A stretch of DNA of 64,000 nt from a virus. The stretch spans positions 675 through 64,674 of the IMG/VR virus record IMGVR_UViG_3300014205_000232; one strand, given 5' to 3'. Position numbers and translations under genes: made by a program. Below the pieces are notes generated by a model. The model had not been told where the DNA came from and made no database searches. It worked only from the letters and a program-made list of their open reading frames with translations. This document shows positions 5,463-60,937 of this stretch, one piece after another; positions within the stretch are counted from its first letter, which is position 1; every line of letters starts with the position of its first letter.

Positions 5463-5522
5463 TCGATTGTGCCCCGGGTCTTTTTGGGTAGTATGGCAGG
5501 GTCCATACTGGAGGAGACGACT

Positions 5523-6083
5523 ATGAGTTTTGATCTGACCGGGGGTCAGTTGGAAGTGATTGTGGGCTGCATGTACAGCGGGAAGAGCGAAGAGTTGATT
5601 CGACGCCTTCGCCGAGCACGTATTGCGAAACGCAATGTCTTCGTGGTGAGGCCTGAAATCGACACTCGTTCTAAGGGAGTCTTGGCCTCCCATGCTAAGA
5701 GTGAGTTTCCAGCTCTTGAACTAAAAACGGCCTCTGAGATTCTAACCTCTCTGCCTGTAGATGCCGAGGTGGTCGGGATCGATGAGGCTCAGTTTTTTGG
5801 CTCCGAGTTGATTGATGTTTGTTACCACCTGCTATCTCAAAACGTTCGAGTGATCGTTGCCGGATTGGAGTTGGACTACAAGGCTCGTGCTTTTGGGCCT
5901 ATGCCTTTCCTCATGGCCTTGTCCGACCGGGTGGATAAGTTGACGGCCATCTGCACCGTTTGTGGGGGTACCGCAACACGTTCTTGCCGGTTGACCCCAT
6001 CACACGACCTGATTCAGATCGGGGCACAGGGGGCCTATGAAGCCCGGTGTCACGAGCATTTTTCCATCCCTGAGGAGGGCTGA
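5523..6083 (+). CDS. tdk: thymidine kinase (TK1 family)
   Basis: P-loop GCMYSGKSEEL, DEAQFF, C-terminal zinc ribbon CTVCG...C; start moved to Met19 preceded by GGAGGAG. Confidence 0.85.
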   Translation: MSFDLTGGQLEVIVGCMYSGKSEELIRRLRRARIAKRNVFVVRPEIDTRSKGVLASHAKSEFPALELKTASEILTSLPVDAEVVGIDEAQFFGSELIDVCYHLLSQNVRVIVAGLELDYKARAFGPMPFLMALSDRVDKLTAICTVCGGTATRSCRLTPSHDLIQIGAQGAYEARCHEHFSIPEEG

Positions 6084-8022: not shown

Positions 8023-8724
8023 TTAAAGGGTCCTCCTGTGCATGTCCAAGAACAGGTCCGGCGGACTCAGATTCTGGATGCGTGCTGCAATAGCTTCGAT
8101 GGAAGAAGCCCGTGCCTCTGGGGTGTCCCGATCCTCATCCCAGGGCATGTCATAGACTACGACCCCCTGTTGCTTGAGTACCCCGACCATGTGATCGATC
8201 TCTCCGTCCAGTCCCCTCAGGTAGTCAAGGGACACGGCGGTCTCACACGTTCTACCGGTCTCTTTTTCCATTCTCTTCATGATACGACGCTGGGCCACCT
8301 CGGGTGAAACCAAAACCCGGAGGCAAACTGTGGGTAGAAGGACCGATGCGGTCATGGCATGATACAGAGTCTGGTAGGTATCAAACTCACGTTGGGACAT
8401 GAGCCCGTTTTTTAGTTGTAAACGGGCAAAAGCTGTGTCACCAAAGTAACTGCGATCCAAGACAGCATGCCCCTCACCCTGCAAAGCATGCCATTGGGCA
8501 TGTAAGTGCATGCGATAACGCATGGATAGCAAATGGGCTTGCATCGTGAAGGACCATCGTGAAGGATCCCGATAGTACTCTCCTAGGTAGGGATTGGCAT
8601 CATTTTTCTCATCCGGTTCTACCAGGACAAGGGTGCTGGCACCCAAAGCGGCCCCAAGTTCTCGGGTCAATGTGGTTTTTCCGCCCGAGATCAGACCTTC
8701 CACGATGACAACTTTTTTCTTCAC
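8023..8724 (-). CDS. deoxynucleoside kinase (dCK/dGK/dNK family)
   Basis: VVIVEGLISGGKTTL P-loop, LDRSYFGD (ERS-like) motif, RxxxR region; a + strand ORF covers the same span (7830..8093, 8038..8307), rejected as antisense. Confidence 0.8.
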   Translation of the reverse strand: MKKKVVIVEGLISGGKTTLTRELGAALGASTLVLVEPDEKNDANPYLGEYYRDPSRWSFTMQAHLLSMRYRMHLHAQWHALQGEGHAVLDRSYFGDTAFARLQLKNGLMSQREFDTYQTLYHAMTASVLLPTVCLRVLVSPEVAQRRIMKRMEKETGRTCETAVSLDYLRGLDGEIDHMVGVLKQQGVVVYDMPWDEDRDTPEARASSIEAIAARIQNLSPPDLFLDMHRRTL

Positions 8725-29566: not shown

Positions 29567-29812
29567 ATGAAGGACGAGACCATGACGAGTGAGGCCCTTG
29601 TTGAGGTGAACCCGAAGCCGATCCCGGAGCGGGATCCGTGGGTTACGCTTCAGTCCGCGTCCACCAAGGACAAGACCCAGCGGAAGCGTTTGGAGTCCAA
29701 CATCGTGACGGGGGGCTGGCGTGTTCGTCGGGCCTACCCAGGAGAAGCCTGGACCCCTGTGTTGGAGGACTCCGAGGCGGAGTGCACCAGGGTGTACGAG
29801 GGGATGAGCTGA
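29567..29812 (+). CDS. small hypothetical protein (81 aa)
   Basis: Met39 of the ORF-track frame, downstream of a full promoter motif that overlaps the previous stop. Confidence 0.45.
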   Translation: MKDETMTSEALVEVNPKPIPERDPWVTLQSASTKDKTQRKRLESNIVTGGWRVRRAYPGEAWTPVLEDSEAECTRVYEGMS

Positions 29813-41329: not shown

Positions 41330-41959
41330 ATGGGGCGAAATCTTTACATTTGTGTAGAGGGGCTGGATGGGTCGGGTAAAGACTCCCAGTTGGACATGCT
41401 TTGTCAATGGATGACGGAGGAGGGCCTGGGTCTTGTTCGTGTGGCGGAGCCCGATGAACAATTACCCACAGGAAGGCTGCTCCGTCAATTATTGCGCACA
41501 GGTGAGCACCCCGAAACCTATGCCGCACTGTTTTTGGCCGACCGCATAGCGTTACAAACCCACAAGGTGAAGCCTGCCCTACAAGCAGGCAAGTCCGTGG
41601 TAAGCAGTCGGTCTTTTGTGTCCACGCTAGTGTATCAGCAGGACAATTGGCCCCTCGACTGGCTGCAGCAACTCCACGCCTACCTACCGGCAAAGCCCGA
41701 CGTGATCTTGTACGTGATGACTCCCCCTGATATCTGTTTTCAACGTATGAGCCAGAGGGACCGGGAGTTAGAGGTCTTTGAAACCCCTCCTGCAATGGAG
41801 AAGGCCGCGGAACGTTATCTGTGGGTGCTGCAACAGTTGCCCCCTTGGTTACTTGCCCCTGGGGGTCAAGTTGTGATTGTGGATGGTACGGGTACAATGG
41901 AAGAGGTGCATGCCTTGGTTAAGGCATCGCTCACCCCACTGATCAAAGGAACCGAGTAA
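41330..41959 (+). CDS. tmk: thymidylate kinase
   Basis: ICVEGLDGSGKDSQ P-loop, DRIA (DRY-like) motif, lid region. Confidence 0.85.
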   Translation: MGRNLYICVEGLDGSGKDSQLDMLCQWMTEEGLGLVRVAEPDEQLPTGRLLRQLLRTGEHPETYAALFLADRIALQTHKVKPALQAGKSVVSSRSFVSTLVYQQDNWPLDWLQQLHAYLPAKPDVILYVMTPPDICFQRMSQRDRELEVFETPPAMEKAAERYLWVLQQLPPWLLAPGGQVVIVDGTGTMEEVHALVKASLTPLIKGTE

Positions 41960-42483
41960 TGGGTGGGAAGAACAAGGACAAGAATGCCTCAAAAAGGCGA
42001 CAGCGAGACAGCATGAAAAAGATCGCTCGGAGCAAAGAAATCGCTCGGCGCCCTCCCATGCCTCCTCCGAGACATGGTGTGCACCAAATCTCCTCGGAAC
42101 TGTTTCCAGATGAGGACTATTGGTTTTGGCTCGCTCATGGTGTGAACTGTGTCGTTTCCGACTACGACCAGGGCATTTGGAGTCCCCTGGTGGAGGACCT
42201 CTACACCGAGGGGTACAAGCTGGGCCAAGACGACCTGCTCGCCCGAATCAGTGATCGGTATGGGGCCAAGGATTGGCCTGTAGAGGGCAAGGCGGCCCTT
42301 GCTTGGGCCGTCTCTGAACGAACCGTGGTCTACATCTACATGATGGAAGCCATGCGTAGGATGCAGACGGCTTACCCCGACGATGACTTTCCTCAGTTGA
42401 GTATCAGAAAGCCGCACAACCCGGTAGTCTGGGAACTGTTCAATTTCATGAAGGGCAAACTGCTCTCTCGAGGTGCCAAGTGA
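41959..42483 (+). CDS. hypothetical protein with basic N-terminus
   Basis: ORF track; coupled to tmk and thyX. Confidence 0.45.
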   Translation: MGGKNKDKNASKRRQRDSMKKIARSKEIARRPPMPPPRHGVHQISSELFPDEDYWFWLAHGVNCVVSDYDQGIWSPLVEDLYTEGYKLGQDDLLARISDRYGAKDWPVEGKAALAWAVSERTVVYIYMMEAMRRMQTAYPDDDFPQLSIRKPHNPVVWELFNFMKGKLLSRGAK

Positions 42484-43172
42484 TTTTTCTACGTCCCCGG
42501 TACACTATTGAGGCTGGCACCTTTGGGATGGATGCTCTCAACCTGATTGAGAGTGCCGCTCGAACTTGCTACAAGAGTGAGGGCAACCCGGAACAAACGG
42601 CCTCCTTTGTCAAGCGTGTCCTTGACAGTCAGCATGAGTCCGTGATTGAGCATGTGGGTATGACCGTGCGGTTCATCATTGATCGTGGTGTTTCCCATGA
42701 GCTTGTACGGCATCGAGTAGCTTCCTTCAGCCAGGAGTCGACCCGCTACATCGACTACATGAAGAAAGCTAAGGGAGGGAACCTGCAGTTTATCATCCCA
42801 CCTTGGGTGACGGAGGAGTTTCCTGTTGGGGAGCAGGTGAACTTCAGTGAACTGCAAGCCTTTTGGGTGCAACACGAAATCAAGCCCTCCCTCGCAACCC
42901 AACAATGGGTGTCCTCAATGTCTTTGGCGGAGGTGGGCTACCGGGAGGTTCGCCAACAAGGGTGGTCGGCTCAGCAAGCAAGATCGATCCTTCCTCACAG
43001 TGCCAAGACCGAGGTTGTGATGACGGCCAACTACCGTGAGATGCGTCACATCTTGAAGTTGCGGACATCCAAGGCTGCTCATCCTCAGATCAGGGAGGTG
43101 ATGATCCCTCTCTTGGAGGAGTTGAAGGGGAGGACCCCGGTCCTGTTTGACGACATCGTCGTCCCCCTTTGA
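42480..43172 (+). CDS. thyX: FAD-dependent thymidylate synthase ThyX
   Basis: ThyX signature ELVRHRVASFSQESTRY (RHRx7-8S). Confidence 0.85.
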   Translation: MIFLRPRYTIEAGTFGMDALNLIESAARTCYKSEGNPEQTASFVKRVLDSQHESVIEHVGMTVRFIIDRGVSHELVRHRVASFSQESTRYIDYMKKAKGGNLQFIIPPWVTEEFPVGEQVNFSELQAFWVQHEIKPSLATQQWVSSMSLAEVGYREVRQQGWSAQQARSILPHSAKTEVVMTANYREMRHILKLRTSKAAHPQIREVMIPLLEELKGRTPVLFDDIVVPL

Positions 43173-43238: not shown

Positions 43239-44189
43239 ATGACGTCAGCAGCAGTCTTGTCCGCGATCAAGTTCAATGTCAGCGCTTTGGGCCGGGTGTG
43301 GCGACTTGAGGATCTACCTTGGGCCTTCAGCACAGCCGACGTGGGTAGTGCCGAGTTTGTACGCGTGGTGGCCGTTTTTCAATCTAGCCATGGGTTGAAA
43401 GAGGACGGCAAGCTGGGCCCCAACACATTGGCCACGATGCGTGAAACGATGCGTGAGACCAAGCCGGTCAGCGACAGTCAAAAATTGACGGGACCTCAAA
43501 GTCTTGAGGTCGTACCCCCCGCCCGTCTGGGGGTGTCCAACTGCATCGTAGTGGGTGGTCTGAAGGTGACCCTCCCGCAGAATCTCCTGGACTCAGGCGT
43601 CTCAGCATCGAATTGGATGGACGACGGTGAAACTCGGTTCAAGGTCTACTCCCGAAAGGGAACCAAGGTTACACATCTAGTGATCCATGAATCGGTGACT
43701 CGGGACGCAGCCACAACGGTTCGTGTTCTCAAGCAACAGGACTTCGGGGTCCACTTGATGGTTGCCCCGGATGGTCATGTGTCCTGTCACAATGACCTGT
43801 TGCTGGACAATGTCGTTCATGGGAACCAGTTGAACGCTTCGTCCATCGGTGTGGAGGTGGTCAATCCCTACACAGGAAAGAATCTCAAGGCACCGTACAC
43901 GAGCACCATTCCCGCAACGTGGTGGACTTGGGTCCCCGACGGGGCTCCCGCCTTGTACACACTTCCCACCGAGAGTCAGCTTCGCACCTTGAGGGTGTTG
44001 GTTCCCTGGTTGTGCGAGATTCTTTCTGATTTGCCCTATGCCTTCCCAACGAAGGACCTGAACGAAAAGAATCCTCGGATTGAGGGTTATGCCAAGAAGG
44101 CAGCCCCGGCTGCGGGTGTGGTAGCTCATCGTGACTATGCAAGTCATGCGGATGGGCGTTACATCCTAGAGGCCCTGATCAACGGTTAA
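43239..44189 (+). CDS. endolysin: peptidoglycan-binding domain plus N-acetylmuramoyl-L-alanine amidase (Amidase_2/PGRP)
   Basis: PG_binding_1-like FVRVVAVFQSSHGLKEDGKLGPNTLATM; amidase_2-like THLVIHESVT...HLMVAPDGHV...NASSIGVEVVNPY. Confidence 0.8.
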   Translation: MTSAAVLSAIKFNVSALGRVWRLEDLPWAFSTADVGSAEFVRVVAVFQSSHGLKEDGKLGPNTLATMRETMRETKPVSDSQKLTGPQSLEVVPPARLGVSNCIVVGGLKVTLPQNLLDSGVSASNWMDDGETRFKVYSRKGTKVTHLVIHESVTRDAATTVRVLKQQDFGVHLMVAPDGHVSCHNDLLLDNVVHGNQLNASSIGVEVVNPYTGKNLKAPYTSTIPATWWTWVPDGAPALYTLPTESQLRTLRVLVPWLCEILSDLPYAFPTKDLNEKNPRIEGYAKKAAPAAGVVAHRDYASHADGRYILEALING

Positions 44190-44442: not shown

Positions 44443-45498
44443 ATGAATCCCAGTAGCATTGGCAAAAAAACGGCACCTAGGCAGGTGGATCCCAACTCCC
44501 CTTACCTCAAGAATGTCAATCAGAGGAACTTTTCAGAGTTGTCCTCCTTGATGCGGACTGGGGCTGAAGAATTGGTGCTGGCTCGACGGATGGCCCACCT
44601 GATTAAGACCACCCCGTCACTGGCTCCCGTTTTGACTCCCATGCTCAAAGAAGCAGCCCTGAATTGGCGGGAGGAGTTGGACGCTTTTCATGCCGCCTCC
44701 CATCGGTTTCCGAGCCTAACGGCCGAGACCTGGTCCAACCTCAGTAACTTCAAGAAGTACGCCCTGAGCGTCAAGACCGCTCACGTGGCCCTGTTGCGGT
44801 CCATGGGTTTGACGAAGGAGGCCGTTCGTGACGGTAAAGCCTTCATGGTTTACCACATTGAGGCCGAGGCCAACAAGTCCAAGTTCTACGAGGCTGTGAT
44901 CGTTGAGGAGGAGTTGGGCTACCGCCTTATCCGGCGTTGGGGTGCCCTTACCGACTCCATGGGCACTGGCCGTGTAGACGGGGCTCAGAATGACACACAG
45001 CCTCGCTTCCTCTTCCCGACCCTTATGTCAGCCAAGAAGGCTCTTGAGGAGGTGTACAAAACCCGCATGGCCCATGGCTACATTGACGCCTTTGGACCAA
45101 AGCATAAGACTCCTGATGGCAAGACCCTCCCCATGGGTCAGTACCCCGTAGGTCTCACTCGGACTGTGGGTTTCGGATGGGGTACGCAATCTGTGACCAA
45201 GTGCATCCCTGGTTTGCGGCAGCTTGAGCAGTCCATTGCCTATGCCCGTGAGGAAATCGTCCGCACGGGTAAGAGTGATGAGGTTTTGAACTATCTGTTG
45301 GAGGCTCAAAAGCAGATTTCGGCAGTGGTACATGCAGACAGCTCTATGTCGAACAAGATCCTCTCCGCGGTTGGGTCCGCCATTCGCCGGTTGACTGGGT
45401 CCCCTCGTTTTCTCCCCGACCCTGAGGGTGAAGCCTTGGGCAAGAGTTTACAGACCGTTCAAAAGTACATCCAGAAGCAGCTTTCCCTCTGTTCCTAA
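44443..45498 (+). CDS. hypothetical protein
   Basis: ORF track. Confidence 0.5.
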   Translation: MNPSSIGKKTAPRQVDPNSPYLKNVNQRNFSELSSLMRTGAEELVLARRMAHLIKTTPSLAPVLTPMLKEAALNWREELDAFHAASHRFPSLTAETWSNLSNFKKYALSVKTAHVALLRSMGLTKEAVRDGKAFMVYHIEAEANKSKFYEAVIVEEELGYRLIRRWGALTDSMGTGRVDGAQNDTQPRFLFPTLMSAKKALEEVYKTRMAHGYIDAFGPKHKTPDGKTLPMGQYPVGLTRTVGFGWGTQSVTKCIPGLRQLEQSIAYAREEIVRTGKSDEVLNYLLEAQKQISAVVHADSSMSNKILSAVGSAIRRLTGSPRFLPDPEGEALGKSLQTVQKYIQKQLSLCS

Positions 45499-45510: not shown

Positions 45511-46335
45511 GTGACCCTGAGAGCCACCATAAAAGTACTCCTCATTGAGGATGACCAGGATGATGCTCGTCTCTTGATCGACCTGATGGGCGATTCAGAG
45601 CGGGCAACATTCATCGTGGACGTCACATACACGGCTCAAGGGGGTTTAGACTCCCTCTCTAAGGGACGATTTGACATTGTTCTTTTGGACTATAAGCTCC
45701 CAGACATGGATGGTCTGCAGGTGCTTCGGGAAATCGAACGCTTGCACTTTCAAATTCCAGTTATCATTGTCACCAGTTACGGGGACCGAAACATCCAAGC
45801 TCGGGCTCTTGAGGCTGGAGCTACCGAGTATCTGGAGAAAGGAACCATCACGTCAGACCTCTTGGAAAGGACTTGCCTGTACACCATCGGTCTAAATGAG
45901 AGGAAACGACCCAATGACTCGGGAGCTGACGTGGGGTCGTTGATCAGTCAACTAGTTGACTTGACACGAGAGTCAGTGAAATCTCAGACCCACAGTACTC
46001 AGGAAATCCGAGAGTTGAGGCGGGAACTAGCGGAGGGTCTTGGATCTTTCAAACAAGAGTTGAAGGAGAGTCAGATCAAAGCAGAACAGCGCAACAATAT
46101 AGTTGTTGGAGAGGTTAAAAACCTCTCCAAGTTCCGGTGGCTGCTTCAATGGATTACGGAGCACCCTACAGCCTCTGTTGTAATGTTTCTCTGCCTGATT
46201 CTGGCTGTTCTCTTCATGATCTTAGCACTTCAGATTCTGGACACCGAGAAGATCAAGCAGGTCAAGGACATCCTTGATGCCCCCGTTACTTTCCTGGTTC
46301 CTAACGAGGTGTCTTGGTGGATTGGACGCCCCTAA
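45511..46335 (+). CDS. response regulator: receiver domain plus coiled-coil plus C-terminal TM helix
   Basis: KVLLIEDDQDD, phospho-acceptor context IVLLDYKLPDMDGL, ...IIVTSYGD..., EAGATEYLEK; C-terminal hydrophobic VVMFLCLILAVLFMILAL. Confidence 0.75.
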   Translation: MTLRATIKVLLIEDDQDDARLLIDLMGDSERATFIVDVTYTAQGGLDSLSKGRFDIVLLDYKLPDMDGLQVLREIERLHFQIPVIIVTSYGDRNIQARALEAGATEYLEKGTITSDLLERTCLYTIGLNERKRPNDSGADVGSLISQLVDLTRESVKSQTHSTQEIRELRRELAEGLGSFKQELKESQIKAEQRNNIVVGEVKNLSKFRWLLQWITEHPTASVVMFLCLILAVLFMILALQILDTEKIKQVKDILDAPVTFLVPNEVSWWIGRP

Positions 46336-48122
46336 AGGACCTGGGCTGTGGGGCCCTAGTTTTTGACACCGCAGGAGACCTTCGTGTGTCCCGTGTGATC
46401 TGGCTTAATGATGTAGCCACACACATGTTTGGTGCCGTCAAAGGGAAAACGTTCATTGAGGTGCTGCCCATCGACGCTTTGTTGCGTATGGCCCGACGAG
46501 TCATGCAGAACGGACCCCCAGAGTGTCTTAAAGGGTGTGCCTACCGAGGACCACAAGGGGTTCGCGGAAACGTTAATTTTGCTCGAGTGGGTAAGAATCT
46601 TGTTCTTACCATTTTTGATGTTGAGCAACTAGCCTCGGAAAGAGATCTGTTTGCGGATCGTTACCGGGCAATAGTCAACTCCCTACCCGACACCGTGCAC
46701 CTGTTGGACCAGAATGGTCTTTTTCTGGATACGCACATTGGTGTGACCAGATTTGACAATGCCACCCCCGAGTTTTACAAAGGGAACACAATCTATGATG
46801 TGTTCCCTGTCCCCGTAGCTCATGGTCTACTCGCTCGTATCCACCTTGCTATTGAGACCGGAGCGACTCAGGAATGGGAGTACACACTTCCCGAGTGGGG
46901 AGACCGTTACATTGAGGCCCGTGTTTTCAAAGTGCACCTCAGTCAAGTAGGACTGGCCGAGGTCATGTTGATTCTACGGGACATCACAGGGAGAAGGCAC
47001 GCTGAGGAGGATCTGAAAGAGACCGCCGAAAACTTCAGAGCCGCTTTTGAGGACAGCCTTGCGGGACAATTTCAACTCAATCCTGATGGCACTTTTCGAC
47101 GTGTCAATGATGCTTTAGTCCAGATGCTGGGGGTCTCCTCTTGTGGAACCCTCCTGGGACAACAGCTGCTGGACTGGGTATACCCAGAAGACTACAGCAA
47201 AGTAGCGGAAGTGATCACTCAAACTTTTGCTCTGTCCCTGGATCAAGGGGGCACGACTAGGCTGGTAACACCTACCAATAAGGTTATCTGGTGTGACTTC
47301 AGCATCAGACCCGTTGAGGTGGACGGGCATGTTCGTTACTCCACGTCCACTATCCTGGACGTGACTGAGAAGCACGACATGCATCAACGATTAGAGCAAC
47401 AAGTGGAGGCTCGAACCGCAGAGTTGCTCAATGCGAATGAAACCATCCAGCAATTTGCCTACACTGCATCTCACGATCTCCGGGAGCCGTTGAACAAGAT
47501 TATTTCCTTTGGCGATCGTCTCTCGCTTAAGTATGAGAGCAAACTGGATGAAACCGGGCTTCAGTATCTGGGCATCATGAAGTCAGCCGCTTTCAGGATG
47601 CGGGCTCTGGTGGACGACATCCTGATCTATGCCAGATCCAATAAAGAAGAGTCAGCCCCGTCTTTGTGCTCCCTCAACGTCATTGTACAGGGTGCACTCT
47701 CCGACTTGGAGGTTCCGATTTCCGAGGCGGATGCCCACATCACGGTGGGAGAACTTCCCAGTGTCATGGGCTACCCTCATCGGCTAGGTCAACTGGTTCA
47801 GAACTTGATCTCCAATGCCGTCAAGTTTCGGCATAAAGATGTTCCTTGCCATGTTTCTATCACAGGAAGTGAACTAGGGGGGATTGCTGAGCTTAGGGTA
47901 CAAGACAATGGCATCGGTTTTGACCCTCAATATGCGGACAAGATTTTTCAAGCCTTCACGCGCCTGCACACTCGGTTTGAGTACCCAGGAACGGGGATCG
48001 GACTAGCTCTCTGTCGTAAAATTGTCGCAATGCACGGGGGTACTATTGAGGCAGTAGGTGTTCCCGGTGCCGGGGCCACTTTTGTGACCAGAATCCCTGT
48101 TCAGGGAGGAACAGCAACATGA
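46314..48122 (+). CDS. sensor histidine kinase with PAS domains (HisKA plus HATPase_c)
   Basis: H-box ASHDLREPLNKI; N/G boxes LISNAVKF, DNGIGF, GTGIGLALCRKIVAMHGG; apparent TTG/GTG start overlapping the upstream stop (start uncertain). Confidence 0.85.
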   Translation: MVDWTPLKDLGCGALVFDTAGDLRVSRVIWLNDVATHMFGAVKGKTFIEVLPIDALLRMARRVMQNGPPECLKGCAYRGPQGVRGNVNFARVGKNLVLTIFDVEQLASERDLFADRYRAIVNSLPDTVHLLDQNGLFLDTHIGVTRFDNATPEFYKGNTIYDVFPVPVAHGLLARIHLAIETGATQEWEYTLPEWGDRYIEARVFKVHLSQVGLAEVMLILRDITGRRHAEEDLKETAENFRAAFEDSLAGQFQLNPDGTFRRVNDALVQMLGVSSCGTLLGQQLLDWVYPEDYSKVAEVITQTFALSLDQGGTTRLVTPTNKVIWCDFSIRPVEVDGHVRYSTSTILDVTEKHDMHQRLEQQVEARTAELLNANETIQQFAYTASHDLREPLNKIISFGDRLSLKYESKLDETGLQYLGIMKSAAFRMRALVDDILIYARSNKEESAPSLCSLNVIVQGALSDLEVPISEADAHITVGELPSVMGYPHRLGQLVQNLISNAVKFRHKDVPCHVSITGSELGGIAELRVQDNGIGFDPQYADKIFQAFTRLHTRFEYPGTGIGLALCRKIVAMHGGTIEAVGVPGAGATFVTRIPVQGGTAT

Positions 48123-57491: not shown

Positions 57492-57839
57492 ATGCTTACC
57501 AGCCAAGAAAAGAAGACTAGTCAGGATCTACATGCCTGGGCCCGTGATGCACGGACAGCCGTAGTGGTGTCCACCGCCCTGTTTGTCTCTCTGACGGTGA
57601 CCTCATGGATCCTTCTCCTGTCGGGGCTCTGGATCGGTTTAACCCTGAGCGTATCCTGTTCTTTCTATGCCGCTATTCTCGCCCGGATATTCCGACGGGA
57701 GGAGGCCCTTGTGCTCCACAAGTTGGACACCTTCCTGAGTATCACTGAGGACACCTGGGACCGAGACCTGGGGGCTGACCGAGACCCACTGCTGAACCAG
57801 ACGCTACAGGAGTTGGCCAATGACGCCGCTAATCGTTAG
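57492..57839 (+). CDS. small membrane protein
   Basis: Two TM helices; ORF track. Confidence 0.4.
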   Translation: MLTSQEKKTSQDLHAWARDARTAVVVSTALFVSLTVTSWILLLSGLWIGLTLSVSCSFYAAILARIFRREEALVLHKLDTFLSITEDTWDRDLGADRDPLLNQTLQELANDAANR

Positions 57840-58218
57840 TATCTCCCTTGTGATCCTGATTTTCACGAGCATCATCACAGTCGCTTCCCTGTGGTACTTG
57901 TTTGCTCTTCACAAGGGCAAGAACATCTGGCACATCGCAACCCTCATGGTCCTTTGTTCCTTGGCTTTGTTGGTCACCGTCATTGAGGCGACCGAGGTTC
58001 GAAGCCCCATTTTGCCCGAGCAACCCAATGTCGGTGCCGTGGAACCTGTCAAGGCCCGGCCCGACTTTGCGCAGCAGTACCGTACACAGGAGCAGTTCCA
58101 GTCTAAGACTCTGGAGCAGATCAAGAAAGAGAAGCCAGTGCCCCCTACGATCGAAGAGCGAATCCGAACTGAAGCTGACAATTACAAGTTGTTTCTAGAG
58201 GAACTGAAGGAAAAGTAG
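57820..58218 (+). CDS. NfeD-like membrane protein
   Basis: Two N-terminal TM helices plus a soluble tail, immediately upstream of the SPFH gene (typical NfeD/SPFH operon). Confidence 0.5.
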   Translation: MTPLIVSISLVILIFTSIITVASLWYLFALHKGKNIWHIATLMVLCSLALLVTVIEATEVRSPILPEQPNVGAVEPVKARPDFAQQYRTQEQFQSKTLEQIKKEKPVPPTIEERIRTEADNYKLFLEELKEK

Positions 58219-58219
58219 C

Positions 58220-59248
58220 ATGACAAGCAACGTAGCCCGTATGGTCCTTTTGCTCCTGGCTATGACCATGCCAGGTTGTCCCGCCTGTGAGGAACGTGTC
58301 CCAGCAGGCCACATCGGCCGGACTTGGGAACCATCTGGTTCCTCGGCTGAACTGTTGGCCCCTGGAACCCACACCTGTTGGGGCAGGTGTGAGATGCTCC
58401 TGATGGAGGTGGGAGACGCAAACTTCAAGATCCCCATGAATGTGCTTTGTGCCGATGACTTGAACTTCAAGTTCGAGATCAACATCCTTGCCTCCGTGGA
58501 CCAGTCATCAAAGGATGCCATTCTTTGGGCCTTTGAGAATCTCAATCCAACGGTGCCTGGGTTGATCACCACGGATCAGCTTTTTCAGACCTACATCCAG
58601 CCCCTGGCCGTGGAAAAGTCCAGCAAGGCGATTTTTAGGTATGCCACGACAGAGATCGCGAAGAACCGAGCACAGGTGACGGAAGAGGTTCGCACTGCGG
58701 TCCTGGAGGCCACTAAGGGCTTGATCATCCAGGTCAAGCAGGTCTCTGTCAGCAACCTTGAGTTTCCACCCCTCATTATGGCGGCTCAAGAGGCCCGAGC
58801 ACAGCGCCAGATTGAGATCGAGACCGCAAAGGCTGAGGGTGAGAAGAAGGCCGCCACTGCTCAGGCCCGTGTGACCCTTGCTCGTATTGAGGCGAATGAA
58901 CGTTTGCTCAGGGCCCAGTCACAAGCCGACTCCAACCGTATCCTGGCCTCCTCCGTTTCCCCCCAGCTGCTTGCTTGGCGTCAGTACGAGGTGATGGAAG
59001 CAGCCGCTGGTGGTGCAAACAACATGTTCCTGATCCCCTACACGGACACAGCCAACAAGGGACTCGACACCACCCGTTGGATGGACAGTCAGGGAATCTT
59101 GGATGCTCAGCTGCTGCGGCGTATGCAAGAGGCCCAGGAGTCAGCTGAAGAAGTCTCCCGGCCTACCGTACCTCTCAGTTTCCCCGCCCTGTTGGAGCAA
59201 GCCAAGAAGGTTCCGGCGGTAGAGGTTGAGACTCCCGCCCTTCCGTAA
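58220..59248 (+). CDS. SPFH/Band-7 (stomatin/prohibitin/HflKC-like) protein
   Basis: SPFH core with ...RVTLARIEANERLLRAQSQADS coiled-coil tail; terminator follows. Confidence 0.75.
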   Translation: MTSNVARMVLLLLAMTMPGCPACEERVPAGHIGRTWEPSGSSAELLAPGTHTCWGRCEMLLMEVGDANFKIPMNVLCADDLNFKFEINILASVDQSSKDAILWAFENLNPTVPGLITTDQLFQTYIQPLAVEKSSKAIFRYATTEIAKNRAQVTEEVRTAVLEATKGLIIQVKQVSVSNLEFPPLIMAAQEARAQRQIEIETAKAEGEKKAATAQARVTLARIEANERLLRAQSQADSNRILASSVSPQLLAWRQYEVMEAAAGGANNMFLIPYTDTANKGLDTTRWMDSQGILDAQLLRRMQEAQESAEEVSRPTVPLSFPALLEQAKKVPAVEVETPALP

Positions 59249-59265
59249 CCCAGTCTGAATGGAGA

Positions 59266-59302
59266 GAGGGGTGGCTTGTCTAGGACGAGTCACCCCTTTT
59301 TT
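59266..59302 (+). terminator. rho-independent terminator after the SPFH gene
   Basis: ggggtg...cacccc followed by tttttt. Confidence 0.5.
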
Positions 59303-59310
59303 GTGATACA

Positions 59311-59553
59311 ATGACTTTTGAGATTCAGCCCTCTAAACCTTTGGTCAATCGTCGCATAACCCTTTCCTTTGACCTAGGGCCGCCACGACGCCCTCAAAGC
59401 TGGTGGCGTCGTCTGTGGTTGTGGGTGCGTCGACTGTTTTCTAAGTCCCCACCACTAGCCCCTGAGGACAAAGCGGCAAAGGCGATGGCTCAGGACATTG
59501 CTCGTATGGAGGACGAGAGGATCCTCACGGAGTTGAGTCAGAGGTGCCCATGA
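59311..59553 (+). CDS. small cationic Trp-rich protein (candidate toxin partner)
   Basis: RPQSWWRRLWLWVRRLF amphipathic segment; 10-nt overlap with the downstream Panacea-domain gene. Confidence 0.4.
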   Translation: MTFEIQPSKPLVNRRITLSFDLGPPRRPQSWWRRLWLWVRRLFSKSPPLAPEDKAAKAMAQDIARMEDERILTELSQRCP

Positions 59554-59990
59554 TCCGCGTACAAGATGTAGCCTTCTACCTGTACAACAAGGTGCCGATC
59601 ACGCATTTGAAGATGCATCGGATCTTGTATTATGCCCAGGCGTGGTCCCTTGTTTGGGACAAGCAACCCTTGTTTGGGGACGAGATCCAAGCATGGCCCG
59701 GTGGCCCCATGATCCCAACCCTCTATGAGACGCTCAAGGGCCAGTTCATGGTGGACGTGTGGCCTGCGGGGGACTGGACGCCCTTGACGGAGGAGCAGTT
59801 GGACACTGTGGATTCGGTGCTTGACTTTTATTTCAAGTACTCGGCCCAACAACTGAGTGAGTTGTCACGTCGAGAAGACCCTTGGATGGACGCAAGGCAT
59901 GGTTTTCGTCATGGGGATCCATGCAACGTGGTCATCAGCCATGAGTCCATGCAAAAGTACTACTCCAGTTTGCTGATCTCGCCGGCATAG
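59544..59990 (+). CDS. Panacea/DUF4065 (SocA-like antitoxin domain) protein
   Basis: HLKMHRILYYAQAWSLVWDKQPLFGDEIQAWPGGPMIPTLY matches the DUF4065 N-terminal signature (KLqKLLYyAqgw.L...g.pLF.e.i.AW..GPV). Confidence 0.65.
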   Translation: MPMIRVQDVAFYLYNKVPITHLKMHRILYYAQAWSLVWDKQPLFGDEIQAWPGGPMIPTLYETLKGQFMVDVWPAGDWTPLTEEQLDTVDSVLDFYFKYSAQQLSELSRREDPWMDARHGFRHGDPCNVVISHESMQKYYSSLLISPA

Positions 59991-60310
59991 CACCAGACTA
60001 GGTGAGGTAGGAGTTCTTCCGGCCCCAGGAAGTCAATCTCCTGCATCTCTAAGCTGTTTCCGGCCTTGAATGAGCGGAGTCCAAAGACTCCGTCCTCACC
60101 TACAAAAAGGTCGAGACGTCTTCCCAATAGGATGCTGGAACACCACATCATCTCCACATCCCCGTCTGATCCCACTGAAATAGTGAGCGGGGGCATGATT
60201 CTGGCATAAAGGCGGGCTGTTTCCACCCACTCTTTTTTCGGAGCCAAAGCCCCGTTTCCATCCCAGTTTTCGGGTAGGGTCAACAAGGCGTCAAGAGTCA
60301 TAGATCCCAT
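59960..60310 (-). CDS. hypothetical protein
   Basis: GGAGGA RBS 3 nt upstream of ATG; convergent with the Panacea gene. Confidence 0.4.
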   Translation of the reverse strand: MGSMTLDALLTLPENWDGNGALAPKKEWVETARLYARIMPPLTISVGSDGDVEMMWCSSILLGRRLDLFVGEDGVFGLRSFKAGNSLEMQEIDFLGPEELLPHLVWCYAGEISKLE

Positions 60311-60367
60311 CTATCCTCCAAGGTCTCCTGTTAGTGTACCTCGAAACTTTTCAAAGGAATCAACAAA

Positions 60368-60937
60368 ATGAGTGACTGGATTGAGTGCAATCTTCCTTGG
60401 TCGACCGTACCTTTCGAAGCTCCCCCCATCCCTGATACCTCCGATTTCGAACGGAGTTTGGTTGGCGTCTCAAGGGCTGAGTTGCAAGCCATGCCAGACC
60501 CTTTTCAAGACCTGGAACTGTTGGGCTCAGCCCTTTTTGGTGGGGCTCAAGGATCAACGAAGTCAAATCTGACTTGGGCGCAAGAGGCACAGATTTTTCT
60601 GCACGAGCAAAGGCGTGAGTTGATTCGTTTTTTGAATCGAGCAGTAGAAATGAGTCCTCAAATCCTGGCATGGAGGGCAGAGAAAGCTCGATTGCGAGAG
60701 GAGGCCCAAAGAGACAGTTTCTGTGGTCGAGGTCTGGATATTCCCGGGACCATTGTAGAGACAAGACTCAGTGGGACTTATCTACTGGGATCTTTTCCTG
60801 AGAGCCTCTTAGATGATGACACGGTAATTCGTTACCGTGTGCTGGAGGGTCTCGAGGGCATTGCTAACAAGGACGTGAGCTTGCACTCTCTGTTTAGGGG
60901 TGAGCTTTTGAAAGCGTTTGCGGATTGTAATCTGTAA
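60368..60937 (+). CDS. hypothetical protein
   Basis: ORF track; N-terminus MSDWIECNLPWS resembles 27589..28032. Confidence 0.45.
   Translation: MSDWIECNLPWSTVPFEAPPIPDTSDFERSLVGVSRAELQAMPDPFQDLELLGSALFGGAQGSTKSNLTWAQEAQIFLHEQRRELIRFLNRAVEMSPQILAWRAEKARLREEAQRDSFCGRGLDIPGTIVETRLSGTYLLGSFPESLLDDDTVIRYRVLEGLEGIANKDVSLHSLFRGELLKAFADCNL

Follow-up and report, generated by a model that had tools for sequence, protein, structure and literature searches.

The closest described relatives of the locus reported here are the PanAT type II toxin-antitoxin (TA) systems, in which a Panacea (DUF4065) protein, PanA, neutralizes a toxin, PanT. The Panacea fold is compact, with helices alpha1-alpha7 and strands beta1-beta2, and a stand-alone Panacea protein neutralizes its toxin directly by contacting an unstructured N-terminal region and a short helix; in Bartonella, the stand-alone PanA holds the pre-transmembrane region of PanT (Ernits et al. 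2023, PMC10440598). In silico, PanAT pairs were defined by a spacing of at most 100 nucleotides (nt) between the genes and an operon of at most three genes (Kurata et al. 2022, PMC8832971). Toxin-first gene order is common in NetFlax (PMC10440598), the partners of Panacea proteins are often swapped, and in the published PanT screen 8 of the 25 predicted PanTs were non-toxic in E. coli. Here, we analyzed a 64,000-nt stretch of viral DNA (IMG/VR record IMGVR_UViG_3300014205_000232, positions 675 to 64,674; hereafter the window), for which a preliminary description had proposed a PanAT-like module made of an 80-amino-acid (aa) open reading frame (ORF), ORF80, and the Panacea-like gene, panA, that follows it. 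We found that panA encodes a complete Panacea protein and that ORF80 has the substitution pattern of a gene, and we tentatively read the pair as a candidate PanAT-like unit of two genes in toxin-first order, carried by a large phage-like genome, with ORF80 as the putative toxin half.

The pair was compared with its counterparts on L001, a 50.9-kb NCBI metagenomic contig, and L002, a Logan contig, both of which carry P0001, a relative of ORF80; a further contig, L003, is identical to the window. The ORF80-panA pair occurs in two lineages, window/L003 and L001/L002, with ~91% nucleotide identity across the region, and the gene order Band_7, ORF80, Panacea, convergent 116-aa gene, 189-aa gene and PhoH is common to the window, L001 and L002. 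The features of the locus are as follows.

59262-59302, + strand: terminator-like hairpin and T-run, directly 3' of the SPFH/Band_7 gene; upstream boundary of the two-gene unit
59311-59553, + strand: ORF80, 80 aa from an ATG start; basic ORFan and candidate partner (putative toxin) of PanA
59398-59442, + strand: Arg/Trp amphipathic helix of ORF80, residues 30-44, as predicted by AlphaFold2 (AF2)
59540-59546, + strand: Shine-Dalgarno sequence AGAGGTG of panA, inside the 3' end of ORF80; kept in L001
59550-59990, + strand: panA-like gene, product a stand-alone Panacea/DUF4065 protein of 146 aa; the start ATG and the stop codon of ORF80 overlap in the sequence ATGA
59960-60310, - strand: ORF116, a convergent 116-aa ORFan; downstream boundary of the ORF80-panA unit

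Both ORFs and the peptides quoted from them in the preliminary description were present in the sequence and its translations. The ORF list gives a longer reading of the panA frame (59544..59990, + strand, 148 aa from a GTG), from which a 148-aa product and a 10-nt overlap with ORF80 had been derived. However, GTG 59544 is GTA in L001 and was rejected as the start, whereas L001 keeps both ATG 59550 and, six to ten bases before it, the AGAGGTG; thus, the product is likely 146 aa long and the overlap is a 4-nt ATGA. Gene callers also start panA at this ATG (P0002, 146 aa). A profile search confirmed the assignment to DUF4065: PanA matched Pfam PF13274 (SocA_Panacea) with E=7.1e-17 and 62.8 bits, against a gathering score of 25.7 bits, over residues 26-114 and profile positions 3-112 of 113. 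PanA also matched phrog_1281 and phrog_10390, two PHROGs of unknown function. The AF2 model, built from ten sequences, had a predicted local distance difference test score (pLDDT) of 93.8 and a predicted template modeling score (pTM) of 0.89, with helices at residues 4-14, 19-37, 56-62, 81-94, 99-107, 110-115 and 131-143 and strands at 47-49 and 52-54. Fold matches in BFVD, a collection of predicted viral proteins, reached a template modeling (TM) score of 0.82, one of them being a named Panacea protein, and no solved structure resembling the window PanA was found. Because PanA carries no helix-turn-helix (HTH), PAD1, ZBD or Phd-C extension, it is of the stand-alone type. Taken together, these results demonstrate that the window PanA is a complete, bona fide stand-alone Panacea protein; its ratio of non-synonymous to synonymous substitution rates (omega) was 0.09 against L001.

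The locus resembles described PanAT systems (PMC8832971; PMC10440598) in its stand-alone seven-helix, two-strand Panacea protein, its bicistronic layout with less than 100 nt between genes, its place on a phage-like element, a small partner without a known domain, an acidic antitoxin-type protein (PanA, net charge -6) next to a very basic one (ORF80, +5.5), and partner swapping within the Panacea clade. It differs from them in that the candidate partner, ORF80, is an ORFan found in only two close lineages, and in that HR and SR replace the QK and T/S-H motifs of PanA.

ORF80 and panA form an isolated two-gene unit, bounded by a terminator upstream and by the convergent ORF116 downstream, which places them in an operon of no more than three genes. 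The hairpin at 59262-59302 has a 19-bp stem and a 3-nt loop followed by TTTTTT; the segment 59249-59330 folded with a minimum free energy of -32.9 kcal/mol (z=-4.3; 0 of 200 shuffles folded as well), and the hairpin is kept in L001, although it was not listed by a consensus terminator scanner. The ATG of ORF80 lies 8 nt past the T-run of this hairpin. No + strand promoter for the unit was found by the promoter scanner, and an extended -10 promoter, TGATACAAT, overlapping the ORF80 ATG was rejected because the sequence is TGACACCAT in L001 and because of this scanner result. A good Shine-Dalgarno sequence precedes panA but none precedes ORF80, and such a site is present for 33 of the 38 window genes checked. 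The GC content of the unit was not anomalous, and Rfam and repeat scans of 58800-60800 returned nothing relevant. At the downstream boundary, the 3' end of ORF116 overlaps that of panA by 31 nt, an arrangement that could permit antisense interplay. ORF116 is under strong purifying selection (omega 0.07 against L001); its sole homologue is P0014 (97% identity) in the sister phage, and it had no match in Pfam, PHROG, PADLOC, NCBIfam or a tblastn search of phages. As a convergent ORFan with no family match, it is unsupported as the true partner of PanA.

Nucleotide identity between the window and L001 was 81% to the left of ~59222, ~91% for 59222-60170 and 100% from 60171 to at least 62100. The ~91% block covers ORF80, panA and the 3' part of ORF116, and the pattern suggests recombination breakpoints at both of its edges.

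To judge from its substitutions, ORF80 is a real gene under purifying selection, more than a chance ORF. Of its differences from L001, 13 are synonymous and 9 non-synonymous (omega 0.18; Fisher p=1.3e-4). The constraint is concentrated in the N-terminal half (codons 1-40), with 10 synonymous and 2 non-synonymous changes (omega 0.05; p=5e-6), against an omega of 0.64 for the C-terminal half; in the five alternative frames of the region, omega was 0.43-2.9. Synonymous divergence (dS) was alike for the two genes, 0.29 for ORF80 and 0.40 for panA. A codon score trained on the long genes of the window was highest of the six frames in the ORF80 frame; it was nevertheless low, at 0.063 against a gene mean of 0.31, and within the top 3.5% of off-frame windows. 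We conclude that ORF80 is translated, probably at a low level. Relatives were few: a search of 5.8 billion proteins found only P0001, with 89% identity, and a hidden Markov model (HMM) search of 1.84 billion cluster representatives with ORF80 returned P0001 and two marginal matches. Single-sequence scans of viral contigs for ORF80 or PanA and tblastn of ORF80 against phages gave no match, alignment-based scans of viral and metagenome contigs confirmed no ORF80 relative, and near-identical DNA was not found in the phage collection.

The marginal match P0013 looks, on closer reading, like a real relative. This 208-aa protein (L005:57-683) aligns through its residues 126-208 with the whole of ORF80, including W..LW.W..RL and AMAQDIA..EDERIL, with 48% identity over 48 residues and a pairwise E=9e-12. 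The ORF80-like module thus makes up the C-terminal 83 residues of P0013 and begins at an internal Met aligned with Met1 of ORF80. The N-terminal domain of ~125 aa has no Pfam match; by eye, it resembles nucleoside 2-deoxyribosyltransferase-like proteins. A second weak match of P0013, at 29633-29764, was rejected on inspection as an ORF80 paralogue.

The AF2 model of ORF80 was of low confidence (pLDDT 63), with residues 1-29 disordered and helices at 30-44 and 51-78, the latter acidic. The predicted helix 30-44 had a hydrophobic moment (muH) of 0.63-0.68, with four Arg lining one side and Trp, Leu, Val and Phe the opposite side. The center of ORF80 had been taken for an amphipathic membrane-active peptide; its amphipathic character was borne out, but ORF80 lacks a stretch of transmembrane grade, unlike the validated membrane-type PanTs. 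The membrane PanTs of E. coli STEC O31 (cluster T3), Bartonella (cluster T12/D11) and Helicobacter share with ORF80 a small size and a charged, partly unstructured N-terminal region; they have predicted transmembrane helices, whereas ORF80 has only a cationic amphipathic helix of the in-plane type and no sequence similarity to them. The predicted-disordered segment is the most constrained part of ORF80 (omega 0.05), which would fit a region that folds onto a partner.

We gathered 85 loci with relatives of the window PanA from genomes and metagenomes and a further 80 loci from IMG/VR, 79 of them informative. The nearest relatives share only 39-53% identity with the window PanA. In 71 of the 85 loci, one family of ~150-aa proteins follows PanA within -4 to +20 nt, with the consensus RVWGIL....WWDPEH and a Lys-rich N-terminus. 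The partnered loci span many bacterial phyla and many proviral contigs (L004, L008, L010-L089, L092-L171). This family had no match in Pfam or the PDB and only a sub-threshold NCBIfam match, to MAG6450; it is presumably a widespread PanT. One PanA relative has a RelA_SpoT toxSAS in its place. The PanAs of this clade-dominant pair are the nearest relatives of the window PanA (42-53% identity); the pair is antitoxin-first, whereas in the window the order is reversed, the partner is absent and 12 of 52 conserved positions are changed. ORF80 was rejected as a diverged form of the ~150-aa partner (hhalign probability 0.1%; best E-value of the family HMM anywhere in the window 1.3).

The 52 positions are alignment columns with at least 85% conservation among 121 unique partnered PanAs. 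The partnered copies matched 43-52 of these columns (mean 50) and the other solo copies 47-51, compared with 40 of 52 for the window and L001 and 39 of 52 for L006, a phage-like contig with panA at L006:4001-4477. The window, L001 and L006 share Q23H, K24R, T106S and H107R as well as a change at N51, so that QK in alpha2 and T/S-H at the end of alpha5 read HR and SR in these three only among the sequences aligned. This motif criterion comes from our own alignments and not from the literature. Both motifs are kept in the distant PanAs of the E. coli Stx-type phage, Burkholderia phi52237, Cr-LKS4 and a Mycobacterium prophage. In a neighbor-joining (NJ) tree, the grouping of the window with L006 (45 of 100) and the nesting inside the partnered clade (59 of 100) were both weak; the shared rare substitutions are the better argument for a link between the window and L006. 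Of the changed positions, 107 closes alpha5 at its C-terminal end and 51 immediately precedes beta2. In Bartonella PanA, H120 and Y56 lie at the end of alpha5 and before beta2, and their mutation abolishes neutralization (PMC10440598); judged by these structural descriptions, positions 107 and 51 of the window PanA would be equivalent to them.

We tentatively favor the PanAT-like pair because the Panacea protein is complete, the unit is isolated, coupled and co-diverging, the partner is small and basic with a constrained, predicted-disordered N-terminus and a helix of the sort that Panacea reportedly contacts, the start of the putative toxin is weak and PanA is remodeled. In addition, L006, which shares the replaced motifs, likewise has an upstream gene that overlaps panA by ATGA. 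By analogy with described systems, ORF80 would be kept inactive by the Panacea domain, which would bind directly to its N-terminal region and its helix. Once unbound, ORF80 would use the amphipathic helix to engage an anionic target and so slow or halt the cell; the likeliest target is the inner membrane surface, followed by nucleic acid. Less ORF80 than PanA would be made, given the weak start signal of ORF80 and its position just past a terminator. Probably, the PanA lineage exchanged its ancestral partner downstream for a new one upstream and remodeled otherwise invariant positions in doing so. A further-reaching version, which we consider rather unlikely, is that a phage Panacea subclade (window/L001 and L006) dropped the usual partner and pairs with lineage-specific upstream small proteins, ORF80 being a transmembrane-less cationic Trp/Arg PanT used in infection by a large phage, integrase-less among the genes scanned, for example in host shut-off or superinfection exclusion. 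The preliminary description had offered "abortive infection" and "anti-defence" as possible roles of the unit, and deciding between them is speculation. The module itself stood in so far as the Panacea protein is real, ORF80 is a genuine gene for a small, very basic product, and the isolated unit is kept in a second phage lineage; it was weakened by the missing usual partner, by the lack of a known toxin family for ORF80 and by the generic nature of the ATGA overlap.

A number of observations weigh against a toxin-antitoxin pair. With an HMM of the ~150-aa family, members or remnants were found in at least 78 of the 85 loci, and the family is present in 75 of the 79 informative IMG/VR loci, yet a search of the six-frame translation of the window with this HMM found no trace of it (best E-value 1.3). 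Partner-less panA copies occur in four viral contigs (L098, L100, L107 and L132) and a few genomes, and a distant solo Panacea gene lies between two annotated CRISPR arrays in Cylindrospermopsis phage Cr-LKS4 (L090, OQ625504.1 87526-89093). ORF80 is an ORFan that occurs with panA in two close lineages only; it had no Pfam, PHROG, PADLOC or NCBIfam match and belongs to no known toxin or defence family, PADLOC returned no match for any of the neighboring proteins, and ORF80 has no transmembrane segment (maximum 19-residue Kyte-Doolittle mean -0.1). Its relative P0013 is encoded on an unrelated contig of 44% GC next to DUF3307, RtcB and HNH genes, with no Panacea gene. On L006, a 117-aa gene upstream overlaps panA by 4 nt (ATGA) and a 103-aa gene follows 8 nt downstream, and both are unrelated to ORF80 or ORF116. 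Since ATGA overlaps were seen at 9 of the 20 same-strand junctions checked in the window, the coupling is weak evidence for a pair. Because the conservation of QK and T/S-H does not depend on the partner, their loss may mean a changed function, not a changed partner. Finally, no integrase was found among the ORFs scanned, while the two phage-borne PanAT-type loci examined sit in temperate phages and are antitoxin-first: the experimentally validated PanAT of Burkholderia prophage phi52237, and the locus of an E. coli Stx-type phage, whose partner gene encodes two transmembrane helices.

Several of these observations could also be explained if the phage had kept the antitoxin-type gene alone, as a decoy against a host PanT-type toxin or as a sensor or binder, with ORF80 a mere neighbor. 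We regard such a solo Panacea as a serious, if doubtful, possibility. It would account for the missing ~150-aa partner in a clade where nearly all loci counted above have it, it has precedents in the partner-less copies of other phages, and it agrees both with ATGA overlaps being generic in the window genome and with an ORF80-like module occurring on L005 without a Panacea gene. However, a protein that serves as a decoy for the usual partner would be expected to retain the residues conserved in the clade, and 12 of 52 are changed in the window PanA. Neither the partnered copies nor the other solo copies have lost as many, which weakens the anti-defence reading. Furthermore, PanAs are reportedly specific to their own cognate toxins, and the literature searched contained no report of a phage Panacea protein acting as anti-defence.

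The coupling, co-divergence and charge complementarity of ORF80 and PanA, on which the PanAT-like pair relies, would also suit a functional pair that is not a TA system, in which PanA would be a chaperone or adaptor for ORF80, for instance for protease delivery, or ORF80 a regulator or localization factor for PanA. Here the nearest parallel is SocAB, a type VI TA system in which SocA is the ClpXP adaptor for SocB: it too has a Panacea-fold protein, PanA shows weak local similarity to SocA (E=2e-12), and the phage carries a ClpP gene ~3.6 kb downstream of panA, from 63574, on the same element. The occurrence of an ORF80-like module as the tail of a larger protein, P0013, would fit an interaction or localization module. 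Nevertheless, we consider this alternative improbable: PanA scored 47.1 bits against the SocA equivalog NF047745, far below its cut-off of 190 bits, no SocB-like partner is present, and the adaptor idea draws on one precedent and gene proximity alone. That ORF80 is an accidental, untranslated ORF and 59311-59549 the 5' leader of the panA mRNA is very improbable, for although ORF80 lacks the Shine-Dalgarno site that most window genes have, starts 8 nt after a terminator, has a low codon score for a gene, is not called as a gene on the identical contig L003 and is absent as an exact protein from the 5.8-billion-protein collection, its substitutions are those of a coding frame (p=1.3e-4 overall, 5e-6 in the N-terminal half; best of the six frames), it has a distant relative at the protein level (48% over 48 aa, E=9e-12) and the region has no Rfam match.

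If ORF80 is a toxin controlled by PanA, it would add a transmembrane-less, Trp/Arg-rich effector to the Panacea repertoire and extend PanAT-like units to a large phage without an integrase among the genes scanned. The understanding of TA systems is unchanged by this locus; ORF80-panA is a reasonable candidate for a screening list, as a plausible new PanAT member with a putative toxin half. The comparative results are the more useful: one dominant, uncharacterized partner of ~150 aa, a few phages with Panacea alone, and one subclade with altered invariant residues. By the structural description given above, these altered residues would sit at positions where Bartonella PanA mutations abolish neutralization, and the comparison gives a direct way to ask about the role of the conserved Panacea core. 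The feature worth following is the replacement of family-invariant residues in the phage subclade.

The remaining genes of interest in the window are listed below.

57492-59248: two small predicted membrane proteins (115 and 132 aa), then an SPFH/Band_7 protein with a lipoprotein-like N-terminus (phrog_200); syntenic in L001, with 81% nucleotide identity
63574-64000: ClpP protease gene, cut by the window end and identical to the L001 copy
25886-27529, 44443-45498 and 10039-11019: an ADP-ribosylation-related set made up of a PARP catalytic + WGR protein, a second WGR-domain protein and an ADP-ribosylglycohydrolase, respectively
45511-48122: a response regulator, then a PAS-domain histidine kinase, forming a two-component pair
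5469-6083, 8023-8724 (- strand), 41330-43172, 19835-20524 (- strand) and 43239-44189: thymidine kinase, two thymidylate kinase-like genes, thymidylate synthase, an RF-1-domain protein and an Amidase_2 + PG_binding_1 lysin-like gene

There was no tRNA in the window, and no structural gene or integrase among the ORFs scanned. The window also has a DNA polymerase exonuclease-like gene, an NAD-dependent DNA ligase, PhoH and many ORFans; neither PhoH nor the ligase pointed to a particular host. Overall, the window has the look of a large-phage region for replication and accessory functions.

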